Source of the DNA: Picochlorum sp. SENEW3
Lineage: Eukaryota
Assembly (NCBI GenBank): GCA_034226945.1
Contig: CP120459.1
Location: 62,001 to 126,000, forward strand
Length of the DNA: 64,000 nt
Direction: 5' to 3'
Shown: positions 21,261 through 36,281 of the stretch, in pieces
Layout: each line of letters starts with the position of its first letter
Position numbering within the stretch: position 1 is the stretch's first letter
The notes under the pieces: model-generated
The model's database searches: none
Seen by the model: the letters and a program-made list of their open reading frames with translations, nothing else
What the model was told of the DNA's origin: nothing
Program-made: the position numbers and the translations under genes

Positions 21261-22418
21261 ATGAATTTAGGGAAAGAAAACTCCATCACGGAGGGTCTTG
21301 GGAAGACAAACTTTGCTGCGTCTGCCATGGCAAGCGTGAAGGAGCAGTTGAAGCAGCGACTTCACGGAGTCACGGCATTGTCTGCTCACAAGGTGGAAGA
21401 GAATGGTCGTCGAGAAGACGTGTTGAAAGAACTGAATGGAGGACAGCAGGGTAGGGTTCGTAGCACGGCGGACATTGGTGTGAAGAGGTCTGCTGCCCAG
21501 GAACAGGGGGAGCGTCGAGCAGAGGGGGTGTCAGACGCGCATGCTGCTCACCATTCTGGTGCTCGAGCTGCTTCAAAGTCCTCGAGTGAGGCCAAGCGTC
21601 AGTGGAGGTTGTCTGACTTTGATATTGGGAGGCCGCTTGGGAGAGGGAAGTTTGGGAATGTGTACCTTGCTCGGGAGAAGAAGAGTGGTTATGTGGTGGC
21701 GCTGAAAGTTTTGTTCAAAAATCAGCTGCAACAATCGAATGTAGAGCACCAATTGCGCAGAGAGATTGAAATTCAATCGCATTTGAGGCATCCGAATATT
21801 CTCAGGCTGTATGGGTATTTTTATGATGAATCTAGAGTATACCTGATATTGGAATATGCAGCAAAAGGCGAACTGTTCAAAGAATTGCAGCGATGTAGTA
21901 GATTTGATGAGCAAAGAACGGCGACGTATATCGCATCATTAGCAAATGCTCTCGTGTATTGTCACTCAAAGCACGTCATTCATAGGGATATCAAACCAGA
22001 AAATCTGTTAGTGGGTTTGAATGGTGAGCTGAAAATCGCAGATTTCGGCTGGTCGGTGCATGCTCCGAATTCAAGGAGAAAAACACTGTGTGGTACACTG
22101 GACTACCTTCCACCCGAGATGGTGGAGGGCTCTATGCATGATGAATGTGTCGATGTATGGTCACTTGGAGTGCTGTGCTACGAATTTCTGTTTGGGGACC
22201 CTCCGTTTGAGGCAGCAGGTCATTCAGAAACATACAAGAGAATTTTACGGGTTGATCTTCGCTTTCCAGAACAACCGAGTATTTCGGAAGAGGCCAAAGA
22301 TTTAATCAGATCTCTTTTGGTGAAAAACCCATCCGAGAGAATGAAGCTGTCAAATGTCATTCAGCATCCTTGGATCACAAAGAATGCCGATCCAAAAGTC
22401 CTTCAAAAGCTGCCATGA
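21261..22418 (+). CDS. AUR: Aurora kinase
   Basis: [61 protein letters not shown]. Confidence 0.95.
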
Positions 22419-22558
22419 TGGTGTTTGTTAAAATAATAAATTGTGCGTAGTATGTGAACAAGAAAATCGCTCACTGCCTTTTGCAACAAGAAGAAAATAG
22501 CAATATACCTATGGAAATGCCCTGTTGTATATTATTCTGAGTAGGTATAACGAAAGCC

Positions 22559-23953
22559 TTATTCAGTCGACTTATTAATATCATGCTTGTTCGTATCCTC
22601 ATTTGAATTCCCATCCTTGGTGCCCTCGAATGGCTCACTGGCAAACATCCCCAGATTGATATTCTCGTACATCTTGCGAGCAGAATCATTATGGCTTTGA
22701 GATAAATCACCCATTCTCTGTTTCGACTGCATACGGACAGCTTCCAATTTGACTGGATCGATTTTCCAGACAGTCTCATGCTTCACTTTCCTCCCAGTAT
22801 TCACAAATATTTGCTCTGATGATAGCACCTTTCGCACTTGAATCTTCCATCGTGGGACATGTTTTGTGTCTGGAGCAATACTATAGTCTAGCTGTGACCT
22901 AAAATCCTCATTTGACTCTATAGCATCAAAGATATCCGGAGCAACCCCTTGTTTATCAGGAAACGTGTCCATCACCGCCACAATCATCCACTTGTACGCC
23001 ACTTTTTTGCGATGATGCTTGCGTTTCTCCCTATTATTGCTTTTTCCCTCCTCAGACCCTTCCGCCTGAATCTTCTTGAGAAGATTTTTGTACTTCCTAC
23101 GACTCACAACAGGATCGCAGTGAAACTTCTCTCCCAATTTCTTCCAATCAACCTGTCCGATTTCAGATACAATCTCACACGCTGCTTGGTAGGCCTTGTC
23201 CTTCACCAAACGGACAAGTTCATTTGTTTCATCCTCCGTCCATCTTTTTCTACCTTCTAACTTTGCACCTGCACTTCCCTGAACAGTGTTCTTGTTATAA
23301 ACAGAATGGGGTCCATGGAACCCTTTTACCATCAACCAGTGTTTCTTGCGCAAGGCATTTTGAGACCTCCCAAAATGCTCCTCCAATCTCCTCCAATCAA
23401 GCTTTACACTGCCAGTTATCGAAAGCCTATACGCTTCATCATGTACCAATTTGAACAGTTCTTCTTCATCCGTTTCATCCCACCACTTCTTCTCAGACGA
23501 GGACACGTCCTCTGGCCCAGGCGGTGGTGCTGTGGTGATGTACATTTGCCCAGTAAGGATGGCCTGCAGCTCCTCCGGCGACAAATTCTGCAAGGCATCC
23601 ATTTGCGGCTGAATACTCATCTGCAGCGATGGATCAATCCCTTCCTCCTCCCCTAACCCCTCCTGAAGATGACCCTGTGTCTCAGTATCAGTAACTCCCC
23701 CTCTACCAGGAAAAGCCATGGACGTTTGTATCGCAGCAAGCTGCTCGGCCGTCAACCCACCCAGCTGCAACAGAGGGTACGGATCCTTCTCTCTTTCATC
23801 CCTCTCCTCCTCGGACACCACGTGTGCCAGCTCGGCAAGGCCCTCACCCGTCTTTTGCCTCTTCGCAGATGCCGGTTCTACCCCTTCTTCTACCAATGAT
23901 TTTTCCTCAGATGTTGCTTTATTTTTCATATCGCCGATTGATTCCTGTTCCAT
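22559..23953 (-). CDS. Putative DNA-binding protein: two Myb/SANT-like repeats plus winged-helix (forkhead-like) domain; paralogue A
   Basis: WDETDEEELFKLV..DWRRLEEHFGRS and WTEDETNELVRLV..DWKKLGEKF repeats; C-terminal domain resembles that of 33403-35490. Confidence 0.65.
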   Translation of the reverse strand: MEQESIGDMKNKATSEEKSLVEEGVEPASAKRQKTGEGLAELAHVVSEEERDEREKDPYPLLQLGGLTAEQLAAIQTSMAFPGRGGVTDTETQGHLQEGLGEEEGIDPSLQMSIQPQMDALQNLSPEELQAILTGQMYITTAPPPGPEDVSSSEKKWWDETDEEELFKLVHDEAYRLSITGSVKLDWRRLEEHFGRSQNALRKKHWLMVKGFHGPHSVYNKNTVQGSAGAKLEGRKRWTEDETNELVRLVKDKAYQAACEIVSEIGQVDWKKLGEKFHCDPVVSRRKYKNLLKKIQAEGSEEGKSNNREKRKHHRKKVAYKWMIVAVMDTFPDKQGVAPDIFDAIESNEDFRSQLDYSIAPDTKHVPRWKIQVRKVLSSEQIFVNTGRKVKHETVWKIDPVKLEAVRMQSKQRMGDLSQSHNDSARKMYENINLGMFASEPFEGTKDGNSNEDTNKHDINKSTE

Positions 23954-24574
23954 TGTAGGAGGGTTCTACGGTTGAAAGATTTGTACAAATGTACTCAGAA
24001 AAACATGATGGACTCTTAGAATCTCTTCGTACATGGTATCATAGAATTATACCATGGTAAAAAATGATATCACGCAGTGGACTAATAGATATCAATCTAT
24101 CCATTCGATAGCAGCAGTCGTCAACCAACACTGGCAGCAACTCTGTCTCCACTGGACTCAACGATAGTTGATGCTGTAATCAAAACAATTATTAGGACAT
24201 TTAATAACTTTTTTTTTTGGGATATATTACACAGGCGAAAAATATGACGAATATCATCCAAGACAATCAGGCCCCCAGGAGGAAATCCCTAAATAAAATG
24301 TTTAGAGATTTACGTAGGGATGAAAAAAACCTCCTGACCCAAATGCTGTCCATTGGACATACTTCTCTATAGTGCTGTTCAACGATAAGGTTGCTGGGTG
24401 TTAGAAAACAGATTTTATTGACCATTCATATGACGACTGCTCCAGGTTGTGAATATTTTACTCTTGGTACCACTAAACCGAACAGGAGCAGGGAGGCCAT
24501 CATACTTCAGGCAAAATCTGATGTTGGACTTCTACTGACTATAAAATACTGTTGAACTGAACGTACTGTCTGTT

Positions 24575-27500
24575 TTAGCGGCTGTTGCTGAGAATGTTAT
24601 TTCTGGTGAGAGTCCATACCAATGGTTTCTGAATCTTCCATCGATGTGTGGTAGATTGCCATTTTAGAAAGGGCAAATCTTGCTTGTTGTTGGACCGTGG
24701 TGGGAGCTGAGATTTTCTGTGTTGCAGCGTTTCCCAGAAGTATTGCTCTGCTGTTTGACTGGCTTTTCTGACGATCTCCTGTGGGTGTTGTCGTTGTTCT
24801 CTGGTACTGTGATGTAGCATCCTATAAGCCGTTTTGCGTCCCACATCCAACGCATTGATTGTGAGAATACTGATCACTGTCCATATATGTGGATCAATAT
24901 CTTTGGGAGTTGTATTGCTCCATATGTTATGAACAAGAAGCTGGAAGTGGCTGTTGATGTCTTCATACAAAATGCCCGGTTTGAGAAGGCTATAAACATG
25001 CTTGGCAATTGGACAATCTCTGGCACAATGTTCCATTGAGGCCTGTGCATGACCACAGGCACAAGCTTTGAGCCTCTCTTCTGGGATATGGCTTACTAGA
25101 AGCCCACCTGAGTTTATATGCCAGATAATCTCTTTCCAAGGGTTGGGTACTTTCGCCCGCCACCATTTTCTGAGGTTGCCGAGCATGGTACCCAACGTTG
25201 GTTTAATCTCACTGAGTTTGTGTATCCAATTGCGCTGTGTGTCAATATTCTGTCTCCATGTTTCTGGGTCTGCTGAGTTTAAGATCAGAAGGTTTGTGCC
25301 TGCTTTTACTGTATATTTCTGGATTGGCATTTTGTCGCCCTTGTAATTATACCAGCAGAAGTTCCAGTGTTGTATGGCCGTTGGGTTGCTGAATACCGTA
25401 TTAATAAGAGAGTTAAAGGAAACTGCATTAGCTTCTTCATATTCCATCATTGCTGGATGGACCCCTGGAAGATCACATGGTTGAGTGAGGAGTTGAAGCG
25501 CCATAACTTTGTGTTCTCTGGTTGTCTGTTTGTAGTACGCCGTTGCATTCCAGATGAGGGTGGACCATATGGTGGTGGTGCCCAGGGTTAGAAGTCTAAT
25601 AAGCCATTTATATTGTCGCGCTTTAATATGTTTCTGAAAGGGGAGCATGCCCAGTCCTCCGAGGTCAGCCCTAGTTTGTATTCCTTCAGTTTTCCAACAA
25701 CGAGCATCAGGTGGGAGAAGTTGTTTGGCCAGCTTGGTTATACCTTCAATAATGGAGGGTGGAGTATGGATGAACTCTGCAGCATAAAGTAGTTTGGAGG
25801 TGACAAATTTGTTGAATAGGTCCATTTTTGCAAAGATGGAGAGTCCTGTCATACGCTTGATTTTATCCGTGAGCTTCTGTAGTTGTCTCATTTTAGTTTG
25901 CCACTGGTATGTTGGTGGATCAATGCCACTATGGAGAGTTATCCCAAGTATCTTCGCCTGGTCTGTGACTGTAAATTCATCGATCTGTTGCAGGGTTTGC
26001 AGTCGGTTTGTCATGCCTATTGGCAGGAGTTTGGTTTTCGCCTTGTTCAAATGCTGGCCTGTTGCCTCTGCAAATCGTGTCATAACTGTCCGGAATAATG
26101 GGACCTGATCTTCTTCAATGATGAGTTTGCTATCATCTGCGAACTGGAATAAGCATATCTTCATATCTGTAGCATCTAAGTCAGGGGTAGTCTGTAGTGG
26201 GCACTGCACTGTTATTCCTAATTTAGATTTCTGAATCAAGCGAGCAAGGATATATCCGATTAGTAAGTAGAGAGTTGGGGAAGCAGGGCATCCCTGTCGA
26301 AGTCCTGCAAGAAAAGATCTGTAATCTGAGAAGCAGTGGTTTGCATAGACTCGGCTCTTTGTGTCTGTCAGCATTACTTCAATCCATCCAATCATATATT
26401 CAGGCATCTGTGGTGCTGCGACATATCTGAAATAAAAAGTGCCTGTCGATGGTGTCATAGGCTTTACGAAAGTCACAGAGGGCAATTAAGGCTTCTCTGT
26501 TTTCCTGGTGGAGGAGGTAGGGGATTGTTTGAACTGCCCAGATGTTTTCTGCTGCTTGTCTGCCTGGAAGGAATGCTGTCTGTGTTGGGGGAATCAAATG
26601 CTGGAGACTCAATGTCATTCGTTCTTTAAGAATGAACCCAAATATTCTGTAGTCCACGTTTAGCAAGGTGATAGGTCTATAGTTTGCTGGGTCAGTAATA
26701 TTTCCTCCCTTTTCGATTGCTCTAATGGTACCATTATGGAAGTTGGCTGGTAGTTCTCTTCTTTGTATGATCGCTGAGAATAGTGTAGCCAGGATTGGGC
26801 ACATCCATTTACTGAACTTTCTGTAGTGAACAATTTGAAGACCATCATCTCCTGGGCTAGAGTTACGCATTTTCCTGAGTGCTTTGGAGACTTCTTGGGG
26901 GGTAATCTCTGATGAGGGATTACTGAATCTTGGAAATATAGTTTCATCGTCTGCAGTGATGAGATGTAACATGTCAAATTGAGCTGCTGCAGTTGTGTCT
27001 GGCATCTGGGATACATCTGCTATTGTATTGACTAAGCAGTTTGCTATCGTTTTGGGGCTATTATACGTGTAGTTTGACTTTGGGTCCTTCAGTGCTCCAA
27101 TGAAGTTTTTGCTTTTTGGCTTCTGCAATAACTGATAAGATAAGATATCCATTGAATCATTCGGGATGCAGCTGTGGGAATCTAAGCGGTTTGCCTGTTG
27201 ACCTTGAGATAACCTTCGTTTGCAGTCTTTAATATGTCTGTCGATTCCTTGATGTGTAGCGTGCTCCAGGTCCCTTTTTAGTATATCCAATGCTTTATGA
27301 GATGCTTGGTTCCAGATTTTGCCCAATTCCTTCTTGATATGTGGATAGTGTTTCAGTATTCTGCTGTAGCGGTCAGATTCGTCCATGTGGGTATCCAACC
27401 ATATTCCGTCTTGAAATCTTGTGAGAAACCTATGGAATTGGTTTCGTGCTTCTTCCATTGTGTCGTGATGGCATTTGGCAGCAGTTTTGATCCTTCTCAT

Positions 27501-28346
27501 ATAGACTTTTTTGTGCTCATTGGTGGAGGTTGCAGGAGTTGGTGTTTTGCTCACCACACTCATTATAACAGGCTTATGATCAGATGTCAGTCCATAGCTA
27601 TGTATTTCTATCGTCTTGATAGGCTGTATGATATAACGGTCTATATCTGGAGATATGTAGTATCTGTCCAGTCTACTGTGTATGGTGCCGGCTGGAGTAC
27701 CATGATGTTGTGTGTATCTGCCTCTCTGGCGGAGTGTCTCTTGTTGACATTCCTGAATGTTGTTACCCATCATTTGTTGCCAATATTTGATTAGATACTG
27801 TTCCTGTTTGTTGTTGGTTCTCCTCTTCGATGTAGTATCGAGGCATTGGTCCTCAATAAAGTTCCAGTCTCCTGCATATATAATGCCTGTGTTAGCATGT
27901 ATGTTAGCCTTTATTTGAGTGATCAAGGTAGTGCTGATGGACCAATGATCTGGCGTAGAGGTTGTTGGCATATACACATTTCCTATTCGCAATTTATGGC
28001 CTGCCCATTCAATGTTGAAGGTTATCATTCGTCCTGTTCCTTGCTTTTTGATAGTATGCGGATGTATGTGAATTGGTGCTCTACCGGTACGGTTTGTACG
28101 AATCCAAATCGCTATTCCTCTGGCTTTAGAGTGGTGATGGTCATTATGCCATACAGTGGTCCATTCAGCTTCAACAGTATTCTCTAGTATTGCTGTAAAG
28201 TTCTGTTCGTCTGTGTTTCCTTTGAGATGTGTTTCCTGGATTAGGGCAATATCAATCTTGTGATCCTGTAATACTTTCATTAGAGCGCTGTACTTGGTGG
28301 GCGTTAATCCCCGTATATTGAAGGTCATTAGGTTCAAGCTATTCAT
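24575..28346 (-). pseudogene. LINE ORF2 (AP endonuclease, reverse transcriptase, C-terminal Cys/His motif) split by one frameshift near 26400-26430
   Basis: TFNIRGL, IQETH, GDWN, SRLDR, SDHKPV (APE); SPGDDG, NYRPITLLNVDYRI, DFRKAYDTI, then in the next frame GLRQGCPASP, FADD; CACG..MEHCARDCP. Confidence 0.9.
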
Positions 28347-28348
28347 GA

Positions 28349-29677
28349 TTATTGGTCCATTTGTGTTGCGTCCTGGGGGTCATCCAGGCGCTCTTCTAAC
28401 CTCCGCCGAGGGGAGCCTCGGGACTTAGCATCTGTCGTGAAGGGAGGCTGTTGGCTGTTGTTCTGTGTTTCCTCTTGGAGTTCCTGTGTTGGGGGCACTG
28501 CAGTCTGTTGTATTGGACCCTCCTCATCAAGTAGCATAGGCCCCTCTCCCTCATCCGTAGGTTGGGGTTCCTTAGGTATTGTATCCTGTTGTCGTTTCTT
28601 CGTTGTGGCGGACTTCTGTTTCTTGTTTGTCTGGTTAATTGGTTCCTGCTCCGTTGCTGTTTGAGTTGTGTTGGATGGTTCTGTTGTGGTGATCATCTCC
28701 TGGTTATCCTTGTTCTGGTTATCTGTCTTCTTCTGAGTAGTTGGTTGTTGGTTCTGTGTTCCTGTGTTCTGTTCTTCCTGCTGCTCTTGTGTTGTCTTGG
28801 CAGCTTGTTCCAGATCGGTCAAATCATCATTTTGAATCTCATTTGTTTCCAACATGGTTGCATACTGTACCTCTCTAACAGGGTAGTGGGTTAGGGATGG
28901 TACTGTATCAAGTGGGACGTGTGTGCGTCTTGGTCTGAGAGGTTTCCACAACAAAGGCGTTAGGTTTGAATTTCCTGGGATCGGCAAGGTTGCAGACTTC
29001 CCTGGCTGCGAGTCCACATATTCCACAATCAGTTGGGTTGCATTTAGGAATTCTGGCGATTCCCCCTCGTTACTGGCATATCCTCGAGGTGAAATGGTTA
29101 AGAGCTCCGCTTCTTTAGAAATAATTCCCTTCTTGGCCAATTCCTCCATGATGCGGGGAACATATTTGTTGTACAGTTCCGGGTACAGCGTTGGGATCCC
29201 ATAAAGGACTGCTTGGTGGTTCCTTCTGTGTGATGTATACTGTACGGTTGTAGGAAACTGGCTGTTTTCATGTTCGAAAGTCATCCAACTGGCATCCTGA
29301 ACAATGGTTTTGAGATGCGGGAGAAGGTCCCGTGTTGTCCACATATTCCAGAAAATCCTCAGTGTCTTGGTTTTAGAGGCATAGTGGTGTCCCAGCCCTC
29401 CCTCTTCATACATACTGTTGTATGGGTTATCCACGTTATCAGCAAATAAGAGTTGACTGTCATAACTGTTCCATCTTTGTGCAAGGTGCGCTGTGAGGGA
29501 TCGGTAGACCTGAAACTTCAAGTTTTGAATATACGATGGTTCCGGTTCACCGTCATCGCACTGCATGGTAGTAGTGAAAGTGACTCTGGTTGGTTGAGCC
29601 TTCTTTTCTACTTCCTGTAGATCCGACAGATAATTTGCCAGGGCGGTCACGCTCCCGGAGGCTATCTCGGTAGCCAT
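28349..29677 (-). CDS. LINE ORF1 protein
   Basis: Long ORF ending 2 nt before the ORF2 ATG on the same strand; Gln/Thr/Glu-rich disordered C-terminal third. Confidence 0.75.
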   Translation of the reverse strand: MATEIASGSVTALANYLSDLQEVEKKAQPTRVTFTTTMQCDDGEPEPSYIQNLKFQVYRSLTAHLAQRWNSYDSQLLFADNVDNPYNSMYEEGGLGHHYASKTKTLRIFWNMWTTRDLLPHLKTIVQDASWMTFEHENSQFPTTVQYTSHRRNHQAVLYGIPTLYPELYNKYVPRIMEELAKKGIISKEAELLTISPRGYASNEGESPEFLNATQLIVEYVDSQPGKSATLPIPGNSNLTPLLWKPLRPRRTHVPLDTVPSLTHYPVREVQYATMLETNEIQNDDLTDLEQAAKTTQEQQEEQNTGTQNQQPTTQKKTDNQNKDNQEMITTTEPSNTTQTATEQEPINQTNKKQKSATTKKRQQDTIPKEPQPTDEGEGPMLLDEEGPIQQTAVPPTQELQEETQNNSQQPPFTTDAKSRGSPRRRLEERLDDPQDATQMDQ

Positions 29678-30261
29678 GGTTGTTTTCAAAATCGCCTCTA
29701 AGACGATGTGCTCGTTATGTTCAGAAACACTACGATCTCAATGTAGTTTGAGCTTATCTAGTTATTATATATATAATATATAATATTTATCTATATAAAG
29801 TTTTTTCCTCACTTTATATAGATAAAGTGAGGCGCATATACATTATCGAATAGATCATTGCCATTCTATGTAGCGGAATCGTGTTCTTGTCTCGAATGGA
29901 GGAAAATCAAATGATCGGATACCAGTACAAGACATCGTCGTGATGACGCCGTCATCCAGAACCAAGGTGTCTCATTCGGAGATATTACTCTTATATGAAT
30001 GTACCAGAATATGTATTTATGATCACTGCATAGGGCAATAGGGGGTACGACAGCGTCTGTCAGCTGCTGACTGCCAAACTGATCAATTTGACTGACAAGC
30101 ACTGCGATTGTCCGCAGAGACTGAGAAGAACTGGATGTCACTGATGCATTGATTGTTGTTTGAATCTCATGAAATGCTGCATTGTCCATTTCTATGCCGC
30201 GGGGAGCTTTTGGGCACGTGGCTTGTCATTCGACTGAATCATGTGCCGCGGGCGGTCCCGC

Positions 30262-30278
30262 ATGCGGGTATAAAATGG
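30262..30278 (+). promoter_or_regulatory. Candidate TATA box of the chitinase gene
   Basis: GGGTATAAAATGGCGG: TATAAAA in GC-rich flanks, preceded by palindrome CCCGCATGCGGG. Confidence 0.4.
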
Positions 30279-30627
30279 CGGTCCGCCAAGTTCTCAATTC
30301 ATTCTGAATAACTTATAAAAATACTTGAACTCAATTTATACCTATCAAGGTCATATTACTTAACGGGTCATTGATACTTGTTGGTACGTGTGTGTCTTCC
30401 TCGTTGACTGACTTTGTGGATCACTTCCGGAGGTTGGTTCAACATGGGCCCATACATGTGATTGCGCTCCAGTGTATGGGTACATATGTACTACTATGAT
30501 AAAAGATTTCATCTTTTATGTGTGGTGTTGCAGTTTATCGCGGGATTGATACGAGACACCGACCCGCGTCCTATACCAAAGTTCGAGAGTTACGAGAGAT
30601 ATTTCTATTACCATTATAGTGAGAGCA

Positions 30628-30963
30628 ATGAACGCAGTACAATTATTATTGGTTGGTACATTGATTGGGAGTGTACAGGGGAGCAGGAGGTTGCATGGTG
30701 ATGTATCTGGTTGCGGTGCCGGTGATGCAGCCTGCTGGTGCAAGTCAACAGGCCTGGTTGGGGGGTATGCTGATGTCGAGGTCGGGTGCGAATCATTCTA
30801 TGAATGCCTTGCTGATGGAAGAGGGTTCTATAAGGATTGCCCTGCTGGATTAATGTATGATAATGAGATGGGCATCTGCAACTGGCCATCTGAAGTGTCT
30901 TGCGAGAGTCCAACGCCTTCTTCTCCAGAACCACAACCATCTCCAGAACCAGAGCCTTCTCCA

Positions 30964-30999
<36 letters not shown>

Positions 31000-31032
31000 T
31001 CTCCAGAGCCAGAGCCTGAGCCTGAGCCTTCT

Positions 31033-31069
<37 letters not shown>

Positions 31070-32358
31070 CATCTCCATCTCCATCTCCATCTCCATCTCC
31101 ATCTCCATCTCCATCTCCATCTCCATCTCCAGAGGACGATGGCTATCCATGTGATCAGGGGGATTCATCTTGTTTCTGCGAGTACATTGGTGAAGATGGA
31201 ATGTTTGCAGATGTTAAAGATGGATGCAGATCCTACTTCTGGTGTGTGAATGGAGCAGATTACTACAGAAGTTGCTCCAATGGTTTGTTATTCAACAATG
31301 ACCAAAAAGCATGTGATTGGTCTGATAATGTCAAATGCTCTTCATCAGACCCAAGCCCATCACCTCCAAGCCCATCTCCAGAGCCTTCTCCAGAGCCAGT
31401 TCCCTCGCCATCCCCTGTCCCATCACCATCACCAGGTCCTGTGCCAGTACCAACAGGCGGAAACAAATATGTCGCTTACTTCCAAACCTGGAGCGATCCA
31501 TGGAAATCCAACCCAAAGGACTCTGCTTTGGCGAATTTACCTCCATACTTGACGCATGTGATCCTATCCTTTATGAGACCAGAGACCACATACAATGGAG
31601 GACTGACATTCGAGGGCACAGGTATTGATTTTTCATCATCGCCTACAGTGGTCAAAGACTCTATTGCCCTGCTGAAACAAAGAAACCCAGGAGTTAAGGT
31701 ACTTATTGCTGTTGGAGGAGCCACCTACACCAATTTTAAACAAATGAATGCAGCAGGAATTGCCAAATTCGTTGAAGAATTTGGGCTGGATGGTGTTGAT
31801 CTTGACTATGAACCATCATCTGCAAGCTGCACGATCTCATCCAATGATATCAGCTGCCAAACAGACCAGGAATACATTGACTCTGTCAACGCTCTTCGTG
31901 CAGCACTTCCAAGACCTTTGATACTATCCAATGCACCTTGGTCTGTGGGAGCTTATGGACTGGGAACATGGCGGGATAGTCAACCAAGAAGTCCATTCAC
32001 TGGTGTCGCAATAAACATGCTCAAATCAGTAGGAGACAAGCTCGACTTGCTCAATGTGATGTCGTATGATGCTGGAAACACATACTCTCCCATTGAAGCA
32101 CTGGCTGCCTACTCGCATTACTTCAAGGGTGACATTGCCATGGGAGTAGAGGTGGCAAACGAAGCATGGGGAGGACACGTGATCACAATGGAGGAGGTTG
32201 ATGCACTTGCTGATGCTGTCCTGAGCTCAGGTCGCTCCACAAATGGAATGATGCTCTGGTCTCTGCAAAAGAGAGCCGACCAGGGGCCAACAGCCCTTGA
32301 GATTTCACAAAGAGTCTGTTCTATTTTTGACTTACCATCTTGCTCAGATTCTTTTTAA
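30628..32358 (+). CDS. Secreted GH18 chitinase with two CBM14 (peritrophin-A-type) chitin-binding domains and Pro-rich linkers
   Basis: Signal peptide [18 protein letters not shown]; two Cys-rich modules ([19 protein letters not shown] and [19 protein letters not shown]); AVGGATY; intact DGVDLDYE (DxxDxDxE); MSYDAG. Confidence 0.9.
30921..31131 (+). repeat. Coding hexanucleotide repeats: CCWGAG-type (Pro-Glu)n then (CCATCT)10 (Pro-Ser)n
   Basis: Directly visible tandem repeats in the chitinase linker; (CCATCT)10 at 31069-31128. Confidence 0.95.
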
Positions 32359-33402
32359 TCATCACTTGCACGTATTGTTTTAGCTGTAAGATTTGAATCA
32401 AATTCGTCTCATAGAATCCTTCCGTTGAGCAAGTAGTAGTATGACATGGCCATGTTCACCATGGTGAGTCACCCTTGATAATTCAGTTGTGAGCGCCAAT
32501 CCCATTTTCGAGTCGCTCACCTGAGAAATCCAGTCAAACGTCCCAGACACGAGCGCTGATGCGCTATAATTGAATTCCTCTAGATATATTTTTAGAGGCA
32601 CGTATCGTTTTGTCGCAGAGAGACGGGTCTTTTCATCCTTGTCCTGTACCTGAGGCCCACTGCTGCAGGTGCCCATTTTCCGATTCTTTCTCTGCGAATA
32701 CTATTTTGACATATTTATATAGAGAATAGAAGGAACGCGGTACCTTTTACGCGGCAATAATTGTCTCTGTGAGAGAAACTGCAGGTCTACACGCACGTAC
32801 GAAGCGCCTTGGCTTTGTTGCAATAGGGCGGCGAGACTTGATACCAGGGCATGCAATAATATTGAATATATCGCGGTAGAAGAGGGCAACGTTTCCTGGT
32901 ACGTGTACAGTATGGTGCGGGTGGGAAAGCGTCGACACTGGGTGTGTGTCAACAACAGAACCTAAGGGGCATGATGGGAATGAGGGCTCTGGGCTATGCG
33001 TTTCTGATGGATTTTCTTATTGATATTTTGTTGATTATTGAGTATTCTCATATTGGCTTTCGGATGGAAAAATTTCGGGGCGTTGGAACTGTTTGAAAAT
33101 AGTATGTGCGGGGACAAATACTCAAACCAGACTCAGTGGATGTTTGTGTGTTGAATGGGACCATTTGGTTGGTTGGGAAACAGCACACATGTCTGAATCA
33201 TTTCATTGGAATGACTGATGGTGTCTGATTATGGGAAGCGCGACGCTTGGCTGTCTTATTGTCCGTTGTCAGGGTGTCTGAAGATGTGGGCCTTACCGGG
33301 GACAGTTGACCAGAGAAACCCTCCTTGGAGGAAAGTAGTGCGGGCATGTTGATGCTATTATTGACGCACTTGACTGTATCTTGTGCAGATTATGAATTAA
33401 AA

Positions 33403-35490
33403 ATGCCGGACATTAATCAAAAGGATTCCGAAGGCAAGGTGCCATGGTCACCACAAGAGGAGCAGGAACTTATGCGATTGCTGCATGATGAAGTACACCA
33501 TGCAAACACATTCGGGGATACGCAGATGAGCTGGGCTCGGATAGGTCAGTACTTTAGAAGGAGTGTGGATGAAGTGAGGATTAAATTTGACCAATTGCAA
33601 AGCCAGGTGGAACAAGCATACAGGCAAACAGCTGGTGTAAACGGGCTTCTGCCAAGTCAGCCTCATGACTATGAGAACCAGTATCAGCCAGGTATGGCGC
33701 ATCAGAGGGGTGATATGATCGGTTATGCTCAGCCTACTCCATCTCCAGGGGAAATGGCAGCATATATGCAGCAAAATCTAGGTTATTATCATGATCCATC
33801 GCAGTATCCCGACTTGCATGATCATGCAGCATACTTACCAGACCAACATCAACAATATCTTCCATCATACTATCCACACCAGATACATCATCAGCATGTT
33901 GAGCAGGAGCAAGGGGATGGGATTCCAAAGAAGAGCACTGCTCCTAAGAACGACAAGGGCTTCTGGAAGGAGGAGGAGCAATTGGAACTCTTACATCTTG
34001 TTAGGAACACACAATATCGAGAGCAAGTAACTGGAAGAAAAGAAATCGATTGGGGTTTGATTGCCAAGCACTTGGGCAGGGGAAAGCGGAGTGTGCAAAG
34101 GAAGTATGACAATTTGAAATCTGCAACAGTTGGAGCAGATGGTTCCCTTGTGCTGCCTCCCAATGATGGAAAAAAGTGGTCTCCTAGCGAGGTTGACGAT
34201 TTGATGAAGCTTGGCGATCCAGATGATAGTTCATATCGCAAAGAGCTGCTTGGTATAGACAAAGTGGACTGGAGGAAGTTTGGTGAATATTTTGGCCGTT
34301 CATATGAGAGTGTGGCCTACAAGTATTCCTATGTCAAAAATACAGCAGTGACGAATAGAGGGAAAAGAAAGCATGAGAAGGCAAAACACTCGACGTCATA
34401 TAAAGAGATGGCTATCACCGCCCTCCAAACTTTGGGTGGAGAGGGCACGAGTGGTCAGATCTGCAATATCATTAGTAGCCATCCAGTGTTCTGCACGCAA
34501 TTAGATTCAGCTATAGTTAGTGGGAAAAAGACTTTGAAGAGATGGAAACATGGTGTTAGATCCGCTTTGAATGCATTTGAAATGTTCCAGAAAACAGGGG
34601 ATACATGTGAAGGGGAGGTTGTCTGGCGATTGGACGAGGCAAGTGTTCAGGCTGACCTTACCTCATTACGCACCAAGTCGGGCAAGATCAAAACCAATCC
34701 TGCGAGGAAAATGTCTGTGAATAAGAAGCCAACGAAAAAGAAGGGAGAAAGCTCAACCGGAGTTGTTACCATTCAGGATGAAGAAGGTGCTAGTGAGATC
34801 CTTGCCCACATGGCACAAGCAAAAACTGGGACATTACAAGCTCCCGCTGCAGCGAACACTTCCGAAGATCCAAACTCTAATCCATCGAATGCAGGATACA
34901 ACAATACCAATAACAACGTCAACGAGGGGCTATTCAACCAGGTTCCGATCATGCAGCAAATTTTGGAGAGCAATCCTACTGCAGAGCAGCTGAGCCAGCT
35001 CCCGCCGGAGCATCTGGCCATGCTACAGCGGCAACTGGAGAATGGTCAGGTTATGCAACAGTATTCGGCGCCTTATGAATCGCATCGCAGAGGACAGGTG
35101 GAACAGAATCCTCAACATGGTGTGTATGATGTTGCCCCGCCTCAGAATTACCCCGTCTATGACCAATACGATCAGCAACAAATGATGGAGCAGTATGCTT
35201 CTGCCGTCAACCATGATGCAGCCCAGCATGCTGCGATGTCTCAAGGCGTGCAGATGGGACAGCCTTTTGATTCTGGGATGCAAATGAACCCACTTCGGCA
35301 GCCAGGGCCTCCCTATGACTATGCCATGTATATGCCTTACGGTGCATACATGGCGCATCAATACGAAGGATCTCACGGCGTTCCACCTCCAGAACAGCAG
35401 CAATATCATCCAGATGTACAATACGGTGGACAGCCGATGTATCAAGTACGTCCTGGTCAACAGCATGACCAGCAGCAGTATCATCATTAA
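33403..35490 (+). CDS. Putative transcription factor: three Myb/SANT-like repeats, winged-helix (forkhead-like) domain and Gln/Tyr/Pro-rich tail; paralogue B
   Basis: WSPQEEQELMRLL, WKEEEQLELLHLV..DWGLIAKHLGRG, WSPSEVDDLMKL..DWRKFGEYFGRS; ATG 33403 follows a TGTGCAG acceptor-like site. Confidence 0.65.
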   Translation: MPDINQKDSEGKVPWSPQEEQELMRLLHDEVHHANTFGDTQMSWARIGQYFRRSVDEVRIKFDQLQSQVEQAYRQTAGVNGLLPSQPHDYENQYQPGMAHQRGDMIGYAQPTPSPGEMAAYMQQNLGYYHDPSQYPDLHDHAAYLPDQHQQYLPSYYPHQIHHQHVEQEQGDGIPKKSTAPKNDKGFWKEEEQLELLHLVRNTQYREQVTGRKEIDWGLIAKHLGRGKRSVQRKYDNLKSATVGADGSLVLPPNDGKKWSPSEVDDLMKLGDPDDSSYRKELLGIDKVDWRKFGEYFGRSYESVAYKYSYVKNTAVTNRGKRKHEKAKHSTSYKEMAITALQTLGGEGTSGQICNIISSHPVFCTQLDSAIVSGKKTLKRWKHGVRSALNAFEMFQKTGDTCEGEVVWRLDEASVQADLTSLRTKSGKIKTNPARKMSVNKKPTKKKGESSTGVVTIQDEEGASEILAHMAQAKTGTLQAPAAANTSEDPNSNPSNAGYNNTNNNVNEGLFNQVPIMQQILESNPTAEQLSQLPPEHLAMLQRQLENGQVMQQYSAPYESHRRGQVEQNPQHGVYDVAPPQNYPVYDQYDQQQMMEQYASAVNHDAAQHAAMSQGVQMGQPFDSGMQMNPLRQPGPPYDYAMYMPYGAYMAHQYEGSHGVPPPEQQQYHPDVQYGGQPMYQVRPGQQHDQQQYHH

Positions 35491-35551: not shown

Positions 35552-36281
35552 CTAAATGTCATCAACATCCTCGAAGTCGACCAAATCTTCCTCAGCATCG
35601 ACGTCATCATCAATTAGAGCATCTGTATCGTTGACACGGATATTATCTGGCAACTCCCCATACTGTTTTAAAGATCTAGCCTCATCTGCCATGTACTTCA
35701 AGATGACATCCGCCTTTTCATCCTGATATTCTCGTAACCCAACCAAAACAATGTCACCAGTGTTCACCCAAACCTTCTTCCTCATCTTACCGCGAATGTG
35801 ACATAATCTCTTCACACCATCAATGCAGTAAGCCTCCAGACGACCATTTCCAAGCATTCGCAGCACCTGTGCGTACTCTTGCCCATCCTCCTTGAAAATA
35901 AGCTCTCGCTTCTCCTCATTCTCGTTCTTTCCCCTTCTTCTATTCTTTCCTCCTTTACCTGCACGTGTCAAAAGTCATACACCGGTTACACAAGTGCAAC
36001 TTATTACAAACTCAATATGCTCGAGCATTCGTGGCGGCCTCAACACAACCCACCCCAGCCACCATTCCCATCAATACCCACCCTCAACAGAATTAATATA
36101 TCAAAGGTATACCCCCTGTGCACACAGCAAGCGCTCATGCTGCACCCACGGCCAACGCAGAATGAGCCGACCCAAAAATCACATTCATAACGGGCGTATG
36201 CTCAAGCTGTGGTGCCATGCACACCATAGAACCACATAATATTTTATTATTGTGCTCAAACGAACCTTTATTTTTTGGCAT
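35552..36281 (-). CDS. EIF1A: Translation initiation factor eIF1A (exons 36281-36266 and 35958-35552)
   Basis: [47 protein letters not shown]. Confidence 0.95.

Follow-up and report, generated by a model that had tools for sequence, protein, structure and literature searches.

The 64,000-nucleotide stretch of the Picochlorum sp. SENEW3 genome analysed here (contig CP120459.1, positions 62,001 to 126,000 of the forward strand; hereafter the window) contains two genes, A and B, whose products join two or three Myb/SANT-like repeats to a shared C-terminal domain, and both the sequence and the predicted structure of this domain support its assignment as a divergent forkhead-type winged helix with the FOX domains as its nearest relatives. 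The analysis establishes the paralogy of the two genes, the order of their domains, the forkhead-type sequence and predicted fold of the shared domain, its conservation among green algae, and the head-to-head arrangement of the pair. We think it likely that A and B are ancient core-chlorophyte paralogs coding for nuclear DNA-binding proteins, most likely transcription factors, that carry Myb repeats together with a divergent forkhead domain.

The window has a G+C content of 43–50%, and single open reading frames (ORFs) span its long genes. Both ORFs lie where a preliminary description of this DNA had placed them (Table 1), and the stretches of the shared domain that it quoted, 22754–23008 and 34387–34635, correspond to residues 316–400 of A and 355–437 of B and agree in their letters. 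Public records include a protein identical (100%) to the 464 residues of A, and further orthologs of A match it at 90% and 77%; the orthologs of B share 99%, 84% and 40–45% identity with it. The ORF of gene B opens at a TTG codon, and the N-termini of its orthologs suggest that the true start is probably the ATG at 33403, which would give a protein of 695 residues. The relationship between A and B is evident from a BLASTP alignment with 28% identity over 283 amino acids (E = 2e-25) that spans two Myb-like repeats and the C-terminal domain, a degree of relatedness that, judged by sequence comparison, is far above chance.

The domain order that had been proposed for the two proteins, with two to three Myb/SANT-like repeats followed by a shared basic domain of about 90 residues, is also what we find, with two repeats in A and three in B. 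The Pfam family Myb_DNA-bind_6 (PF13921) passes its cut-off of 22.9 bits in both A (25.6 bits) and B (41.8 bits), and the extra N-terminal repeat of B matches Myb_DNA-binding (PF00249) at 32.6 bits, for which the cut-off is 24.4. The best match of the Myb repeats to a protein in the PDB is that of B repeat 2 to the repeats of Schizosaccharomyces pombe Reb1, which is non-significant (E = 0.11), and NCBIfam provides no family for A or B, as expected of a library that is oriented towards prokaryotes. The forkhead-like domains are strongly basic parts of otherwise acidic proteins, with an isoelectric point (pI) of 10.0 for the domain of A within a protein of pI 5.7, and of 9.3 for that of B within a protein of pI 6.2; the N-terminal 150 residues of A are acidic (pI 4.2), and the tail of B contains 15% glutamine.

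Sequence and predicted fold of the shared domain

Four independent rankings put FOX domains first for the shared domain, with alignments that extend across the whole of it. First, the Pfam Forkhead profile (PF00250) matches full-length A with an E-value of 6.1e-4 (20.3 bits) and the A domain piece by itself with an E-value of 1.6e-5 (25.4 bits), in both cases over profile positions 3–84 of 88, and it matches the B domain piece by itself with an E-value of 0.001 (19.6 bits). Two alignments carry this comparison into the wider family: A1 brings together the domain regions of A and B with those of 15 of the 20 homologs of A other than A itself (P0004, P0012, P0017, P0022 and P0023 are omitted as close copies of sequences that were kept), and A2 consists of B and 12 of its 21 homologs. 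When the A1 pieces are scanned singly against Pfam (E ≤ 10), Forkhead is the top family for all 17 (best E = 6.2e-8), and the three other families that appear do so at chance level and in one or two members each; for the A2 pieces it is the top family in 12 of 13 (best E = 3.4e-5). Linker_histone is absent among these 17 and 13 pieces at E ≤ 10, a threshold at which the HMMER filters drop most weak matches, and HARE-HTH and the NFRKB winged helix are likewise missing from the Pfam results for all 30 pieces. Forkhead is also present at E ≤ 0.1 in 17 of the 20 full-length homologs of A.

Secondly, the A1 profile has 39 matches among all PDB sequences (E ≤ 10), 38 of which are FOX proteins, with FOXM1 (E = 0.0019) at their head, followed by FOXK1, FOXN1, FOXK2, FOXO4, FOXO1 and others; the sole non-FOX match is yeast histone H1 (E = 0.48). 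The residues that stand out in the algal sequences fall at positions that match those of FOX domains, including Y..MI..A in helix 1, W(K)..(V/I)R..LS....F in helix 3, and the tryptophan that ends strand 3.

The third and fourth rankings come from structures predicted with AlphaFold2 (AF2). The models have predicted local distance difference test (pLDDT) scores of 87.6 for the A domain and 84.7 for the B domain, with predicted template modelling (pTM) scores of 0.78 and 0.76, and they have a common topology of a helix, a short strand, a helix, a short helix, a roughly 15-residue loop, a long helix, a two-strand hairpin and a C-terminal helix. In forkhead terms this is the order H1-S1-H2-(short helix)-loop-H3-S2-S3, and both the order of the elements and the nearest solved structures, which are FOX domains, are those of the forkhead fold. 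Foldseek finds 48 matches in the PDB for the A model and six for the B model at E ≤ 1e-3, with FOXN1 first and FOX proteins in all of the rows shown. In a VIA-align comparison of the A model with 48,161 chains, ranks 1–8 are FOX domains (Z scores of 10.7–8.8), beneath which come the linker histones H1.8 (Z 8.4, rank 9), H1x (8.1) and H5 (7.1), with numerous bacterial winged helices around Z 7. The nearest neighbours in fold are FOXN1, yeast Fkh1 and FOXO1, and identity to the FOX structures is 15–26%. All four of the structure rows obtained from the ESM Atlas are Forkhead clusters, and ESM Atlas features, whose scores are no more than leads below 0.9, list the NFRKB winged helix (0.81), HARE-HTH (0.77) and a mostly chlorophyte cluster (0.75).

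The preliminary description had suggested a divergent forkhead-type winged helix and had named the linker-histone H15 domain, or another plant winged helix-turn-helix family, as the competing assignment. The outcome is the opposite of that competing assignment, with FOX first and linker histones second, and FOX is the best and almost the sole match by Pfam, by the PDB profile search, by Foldseek and by VIA-align alike.

Within this framework there are several departures from canonical FOX domains. First, as had been suggested, there is an insertion before the recognition helix, seen as a nine-residue gap in FOXM1 relative to the family profile, between helix 2 and the recognition helix. It is well conserved: among the A1 sequences the leucine and aspartate are invariant and the proline, glycine, threonine and valine nearly so (pattern QLD..I.PGTK.VP), and in A2 the stretch QLD.AIVSGKKTL is almost unchanged, such that the helix-3 arginine and the L, D, P/S, G and T/K of the insertion are conserved across the 17 and the 13 sequences. 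Secondly, the residues aligned with the FOX base contacts are altered, also as first described: opposite WKNSIRHNLS of FOXM1 stand WKIQVRKVLS (A type) and WKHGVRSALN (B type). The W, K, R and L are kept in both types, as is the final serine in the A type, but the A and B domains depart from the FOX recognition-helix signature W-K-N-S-I-R-H-N-L-S. In FOX domains the asparagine, arginine and histidine of this helix make the main base contacts, and because the asparagine and histidine are replaced in A and B, we regard their domain as divergent forkhead-type and not as canonical FOX. Thirdly, a C-terminal helix is predicted in the A and B models where canonical FOX domains have wing 2.

Outside the domain, a short AEQL / L(P/S)PE.L motif that had been noticed in both proteins is real and conserved, and it lies on opposite sides of the domain in the two types. 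Counted with loose patterns that were written after the sequences were known, and without a control for chance, a TAEQL..L or L(S/P)PE.L..(I/L) motif precedes the domain in 18 of 21 proteins of the A type and follows it in 16 of 21 of the B type. The motif is amphipathic, and it may contact a partner or co-activator.

Family members and gene order

When 1.84 billion representative proteins were searched exhaustively with the family profile, there were 165 matches at E ≤ 1e-3, 43 at E ≤ 1e-10 and 17 at E ≤ 1e-30, a distribution of sequence matches that indicates a real but small family. Relatives are present in Auxenochlorella, Micractinium, Parachlorella, Chlorella vulgaris, C. sorokiniana, Botryococcus and Myrmecia, all of which are Trebouxiophyceae, and also in Astrephomene, Edaphochlamys and Chlamydomonas schloesseri, which are Chlorophyceae, and in Tetraselmis chuii, a member of the Chlorodendrophyceae, whose sequence originates from a transcriptome collection. 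Because Auxenochlorella has both types, the A type and the B type are old orthogroups and not the products of a recent tandem duplication.

Among 50 further profile matches scanned with Pfam, Forkhead is found at E ≤ 0.01 in 12 and a Myb family in another 12, and three, P0077, P0170 and P0158, are above the Forkhead cut-off; the distant relative P0158 scores 29.3 bits. P0158 is also one of three proteins, with P0093 and P0106, in which a long-loop forkhead-like domain is C-terminal and joined to an SGF29 Tudor domain, and P0106 and P0158 additionally contain a SAP30 Sin3-binding region. The cluster of P0106 includes proteins of the stramenopiles Nannochloropsis gaditana (EWM22464.1) and N. salina (TFJ80060.1), and because Nannochloropsis has the long-loop domain in another architecture, it is not confined to green algae. 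Other arrangements are seen among the chlorophycean relatives (Edaphochlamys debaryana P0082 and P0084, and Astrephomene P0065), among which one protein has two tandem forkhead-like domains; P0082 and P0084 have consecutive locus tags (HYH03_014900 and HYH03_014901) and are encoded by adjacent genes, and one Edaphochlamys relative is named 'SET domain-containing protein' in UniRef. P0077 (1153 residues) contains eight forkhead domains (Pfam, 492 bits) and P0170 (914 residues) contains four (115 bits), which means either that both are unusual proteins with many forkhead domains or that gene models have been fused across tandem arrays.

A tree computed from 112 rows of the domain separates the A-type sequences, the B-type sequences and six or more additional clades from one another, although it is built from few columns, has long branches and no meaningful root, leaves 47 of its 109 inner branches open, and draws its canonical FOX rows solely from the two odd multi-domain proteins P0077 and P0170. 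An ancient origin and a transfer are not separable by this tree, and we therefore draw no conclusion on direction.

The arrangement of the genes is conserved as well. A scan of metagenomes gave four loci, of which two (L001 and L003) are long and the other two are too short to include neighbours. In both of the long loci the A-type gene has a B-type gene as its head-to-head neighbour, with the listed ORF starts about 0.6 kb apart in L001 and 1.25 kb apart in L003; identity to B is 41% (E = 1e-139) for the first of these B-type genes and 51% (E = 4e-89) for the second. On its other side the A-type gene is followed, in tail-to-tail orientation, by an ortholog of the Aurora-like kinase gene next to gene A (73% and 85% identity over the aligned parts), such that the order and orientation of the B-type, A-type and Aurora-like kinase genes are kept in all three loci with enough flank (L001, 6412–11452; L003, 5522–12032; the window, 21261–35490). 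In the window, A and B are separated by 9.4 kb that holds a retrotransposon of the long interspersed nuclear element (LINE) type and a chitinase gene; in L001 and L003 there is no LINE between the pair, and no ORF of at least 150 codons fits between the A-type and B-type genes. From the arrangement in L001 and L003 it is most likely that A and B were ancestrally a divergent pair with a common upstream region, which has been split in the window by insertions.

The LINE adjoins gene A, and one could therefore ask whether A and B are chance ORFs or decaying copies near a retrotransposon. However, both are long and intact, and many algae have versions that are 40–50% identical, in which some positions are invariant all along the domains; their synteny is kept, and the Tetraselmis chuii relative comes from a transcriptome collection. 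We accordingly give non-functional ORFs a negligible probability.

The features of the locus are listed in Table 1. The reverse transcriptase (RT) of the LINE is divided between two ORFs, with the endonuclease and the first part of the RT at 26400–28346 and the remainder in a separate, overlapping ORF at 24575–26485, and is thus interrupted by a frame change; a 446-residue ORF1-like ORF at 28349–29689 is without a Pfam family, and the G+C content of the LINE region (0.43) is below that of its surroundings. In the chitinase the two CBM14 modules are linked by PE/PS-rich linkers, and the opposite strand of its gene carries a chance ORF (30614–31168) that is full of EM/AL/AQ repeats. To the right of gene B, and tail to tail with it, an eIF1A gene (35552–35971, minus strand) lies 61 bp past the gene B stop codon.

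Table 1. Genes A and B, their domains and motifs, and neighbouring elements (positions in the window).
Feature	Position	Strand	Basis
Gene A, Myb-Myb-forkhead-like, 464 aa	22559..23953	-	ORF; apparently intronless
A motif copy 1, LTAEQLAAI, residues 67-75, in the acidic N-terminal region	23729..23755	-	Pattern found in 15/21 A-type proteins
A motif copy 2, LSPEELQAI, residues 124-132	23558..23584	-	Pattern search
A Myb/SANT-like repeat 1, residues 158-205	23339..23482	-	Pfam Myb_DNA-bind_6, E 1.4e-5, 25.6 bits
A Myb/SANT-like repeat 2, residues about 235-292	23078..23251	-	Second Myb_DNA-bind_6 stretch; aligns with B repeat 3
A forkhead-like winged helix with basic N-terminal arm and C-terminal helix, residues 305-415	22709..23041	-	Pfam match 316-403
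Gene B, Myb-Myb-Myb-forkhead-like with Q-rich tail, 721 aa from TTG	33325..35490	+	ORF
B Myb-like repeat 1, residues 38-88	33436..33588	+	Pfam Myb_DNA-binding, E 8.9e-8, 32.6 bits
B Myb-like repeat 2, residues 214-266	33964..34122	+	Pfam Myb_DNA-bind_6, E 1.2e-10, 41.8 bits
B Myb-like repeat 3, residues about 282-336	34168..34332	+	Aligns with A repeat 2
B forkhead-like winged helix, residues 345-450	34357..34674	+	Pfam match about 354-440
B motif, TAEQLSQLPPEHLAML, residues 552-567, half-motifs adjacent, downstream of the domain	34978..35025	+	Kept in B orthologs
Aurora-like protein kinase gene, tail to tail with gene A	21261..22418	+	Pkinase, E 2.6e-76
LINE-type retrotransposon without long terminal repeats, between A and B	24575..29689	-	Exo_endo_phos and RVT_1 matches
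GH18 chitinase gene, secreted-type, two CBM14 modules, between A and B	30619..32358	+	Pfam

Putative roles and comparison with known systems

Several points weigh against reading A and B as transcription factors with a forkhead-type domain. Some concern the strength of the matches: the Pfam Forkhead cut-off of 27 bits is reached by neither A nor B, whether full-length or as a domain piece, nor by any of the 20 full-length A homologs (best, 26.7 bits); full-length B matches only Myb families and not Forkhead in Pfam at E ≤ 10; the A2 profile finds only two PDB matches, FOXP2 (E = 0.71) and FOXP1 (E = 1.1), both non-significant; and the structures are predicted from shallow alignments of 17 and 13 sequences. 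Others concern function: the FOX asparagine position is occupied by isoleucine in A and histidine in B, and the FOX histidine position by lysine in A and serine in B, and because these aligned residues are replaced, sequence-specific binding is not assured; the linker histones lie within about 2 Z units of the best FOX domain in VIA-align; and in other lineages the related domain is fused to chromatin modules.

The scores below the Pfam cut-off bear on the idea that the algal domain is an independent winged-helix branch that resembles FOX as winged helices in general do and is no closer to it than to other branches, as the low identity to the FOX structures and the leading places of NFRKB and HARE-HTH among the ESM features could also suggest. 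We consider this very improbable, given the agreement of the four rankings noted above and the match of the helix-1, helix-3 and strand-3 landmarks to FOX positions; moreover, there are bridging relatives such as P0158, which exceeds the cut-off.

The points on function bear on the main rival to a transcription factor role, which is that A and B are chromatin-associated, with the forkhead-like domain binding linker or nucleosomal DNA without sequence preference, in the manner of the H1/H5 globular domain, and the SANT-like repeats contacting histones. The replacement of the asparagine and histidine is consistent with this, as are the closeness of H1.8 and H1x to the FOX rows, the fusions to the SGF29 Tudor domain and SAP30 region in Nannochloropsis and relatives, and the presence of the domain in the Edaphochlamys protein with a SET domain name. 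In sequence, however, the domain is nearest to FOX and not to linker histones, as both the PDB matches and the 30 domain pieces indicate, and the recognition helix is strongly but differently conserved in the A and B types, which fits specific recognition better. A chromatin role therefore seems unlikely, and we favour transcription factors.

As transcription factors, the two proteins would each bring two or three long helix-turn-helix repeats of the Myb/SANT type and one forkhead-type winged helix to DNA; the binding and its specificity, as well as the nuclear localization, expression and partnership of A and B, are putative. By analogy with FOX, the third helix (RWKIQVRKVLS in A and RWKHGVRSALN in B), in which the conserved arginine is kept, may enter the major groove, and because the FOX asparagine and histidine positions are replaced differently in A and B, the predicted sites are unlike the canonical forkhead motif and unlike each other. 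Further contacts, to the backbone or in the minor groove, are probably made by the nine-residue insertion and by the basic arm at the N-terminal side of the domain (KRKHHRKK), and together with the Myb repeats they could produce a long composite binding site. The acidic or glutamine-rich remainder of the proteins, with its amphipathic motif, may serve in activation or partner binding, and the divergent promoter region that is common to the two genes in relatives suggests that A and B are co-regulated. One could go further and speculate that the family is an old eukaryotic sister branch of FOX, kept in core chlorophytes and eustigmatophytes and not recently transferred from opisthokonts, and that A and B act jointly, possibly as a heterodimer formed through the TAEQL/PPEQL motif, in regulating cell division, each polypeptide uniting the Myb and forkhead recognition that animals divide between B-Myb and FOXM1, with the adjacency of the Aurora-like kinase gene being more than coincidence; taken as a whole, we regard this extended proposal as improbable.

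A comparison with described systems illustrates both the likeness and the differences. The A and B domains share with FOX domains (PF00250) their length, the order H1, S1, H2, H3, S2, wing, S3, the basic character and the terminal tryptophan, and by sequence they are nearest to FOXM1, FOXK1/2, FOXN1 and FOXO1/4; they differ in their sub-cut-off scores, the nine-residue insertion between H2 and H3, the replaced asparagine and histidine, their fusion to Myb repeats, and their occurrence in green algae. The TRB/SMH proteins of plants, whose architecture is a Myb domain with a linker-histone H15 domain, are likewise proteins of photosynthetic eukaryotes in which a Myb-type repeat accompanies an H15/forkhead-class winged helix. 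However, the winged helix of A and B matches forkhead and not H15 (histone H1 is one of the 39 PDB matches, and there is no Pfam Linker_histone match), two or three long Myb repeats lie upstream of a C-terminal winged helix, and no telomere-repeat-binding family was matched by the A or B Myb repeats in the Pfam scan.

The pairing of the two domain types also recalls the animal B-Myb and FOXM1 proteins on the MuvB core, where Myb-type and forkhead-type binders come together, and FOXM1 is the best PDB match of the algal profile; A and B differ from these in holding both domain types in one polypeptide, and their Myb repeats are not of the R1R2R3 form. As regards this parallel, that the Aurora-like kinase gene happens to lie next to the pair is no more than coincidence. 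Finally, the SAP30/SGF29-Tudor proteins of Nannochloropsis (see above) share the long-loop domain, with a weak or passing Pfam Forkhead match, but have N-terminal chromatin readers in place of Myb repeats and are from stramenopiles.

In the public record the name 'forkhead box M1 [Chlorella sorokiniana]' is attached to one relative, the majority of the others being called 'hypothetical' or 'Myb-like domain-containing', and an ESM Atlas cluster composed mostly of Chlorophyta has been automatically named 'Fork-head domain-containing protein'. A search of the full-text literature found no paper on green-algal forkhead domains or on a Myb–forkhead fusion, the other mentions of 'forkhead' in algal papers being of the FHA domain or of animal FOXO. 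The proposal of an undescribed green-algal family is therefore sustained in part: its named relatives are green algae and we found no account of it among the papers searched, but databases already apply the names 'forkhead box M1' and 'Fork-head', and the domain is present in Nannochloropsis too. The Myb-fused divergent forkhead variant is real and conserved in green algae, and is faintly visible in these names. In its passage on FoxJ1 homologs, a published survey reports none in any bikont, Chlamydomonas included (PMC3493443).

The wider interest of A and B is threefold. First, forkhead factors are considered characteristic of animals and fungi together with the unicellular relatives of these groups, and to our knowledge the standard catalogues of plant and algal transcription factors do not list such a family; a conserved, multi-paralog family of forkhead type in green algae would shift the origin or the spread of the domain well beyond these organisms. 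Secondly, members are present in genera used in biotechnology, including Chlorella, Auxenochlorella and Nannochloropsis. Thirdly, the replaced base-contact positions constitute a natural experiment on the re-tuning of the forkhead helix.

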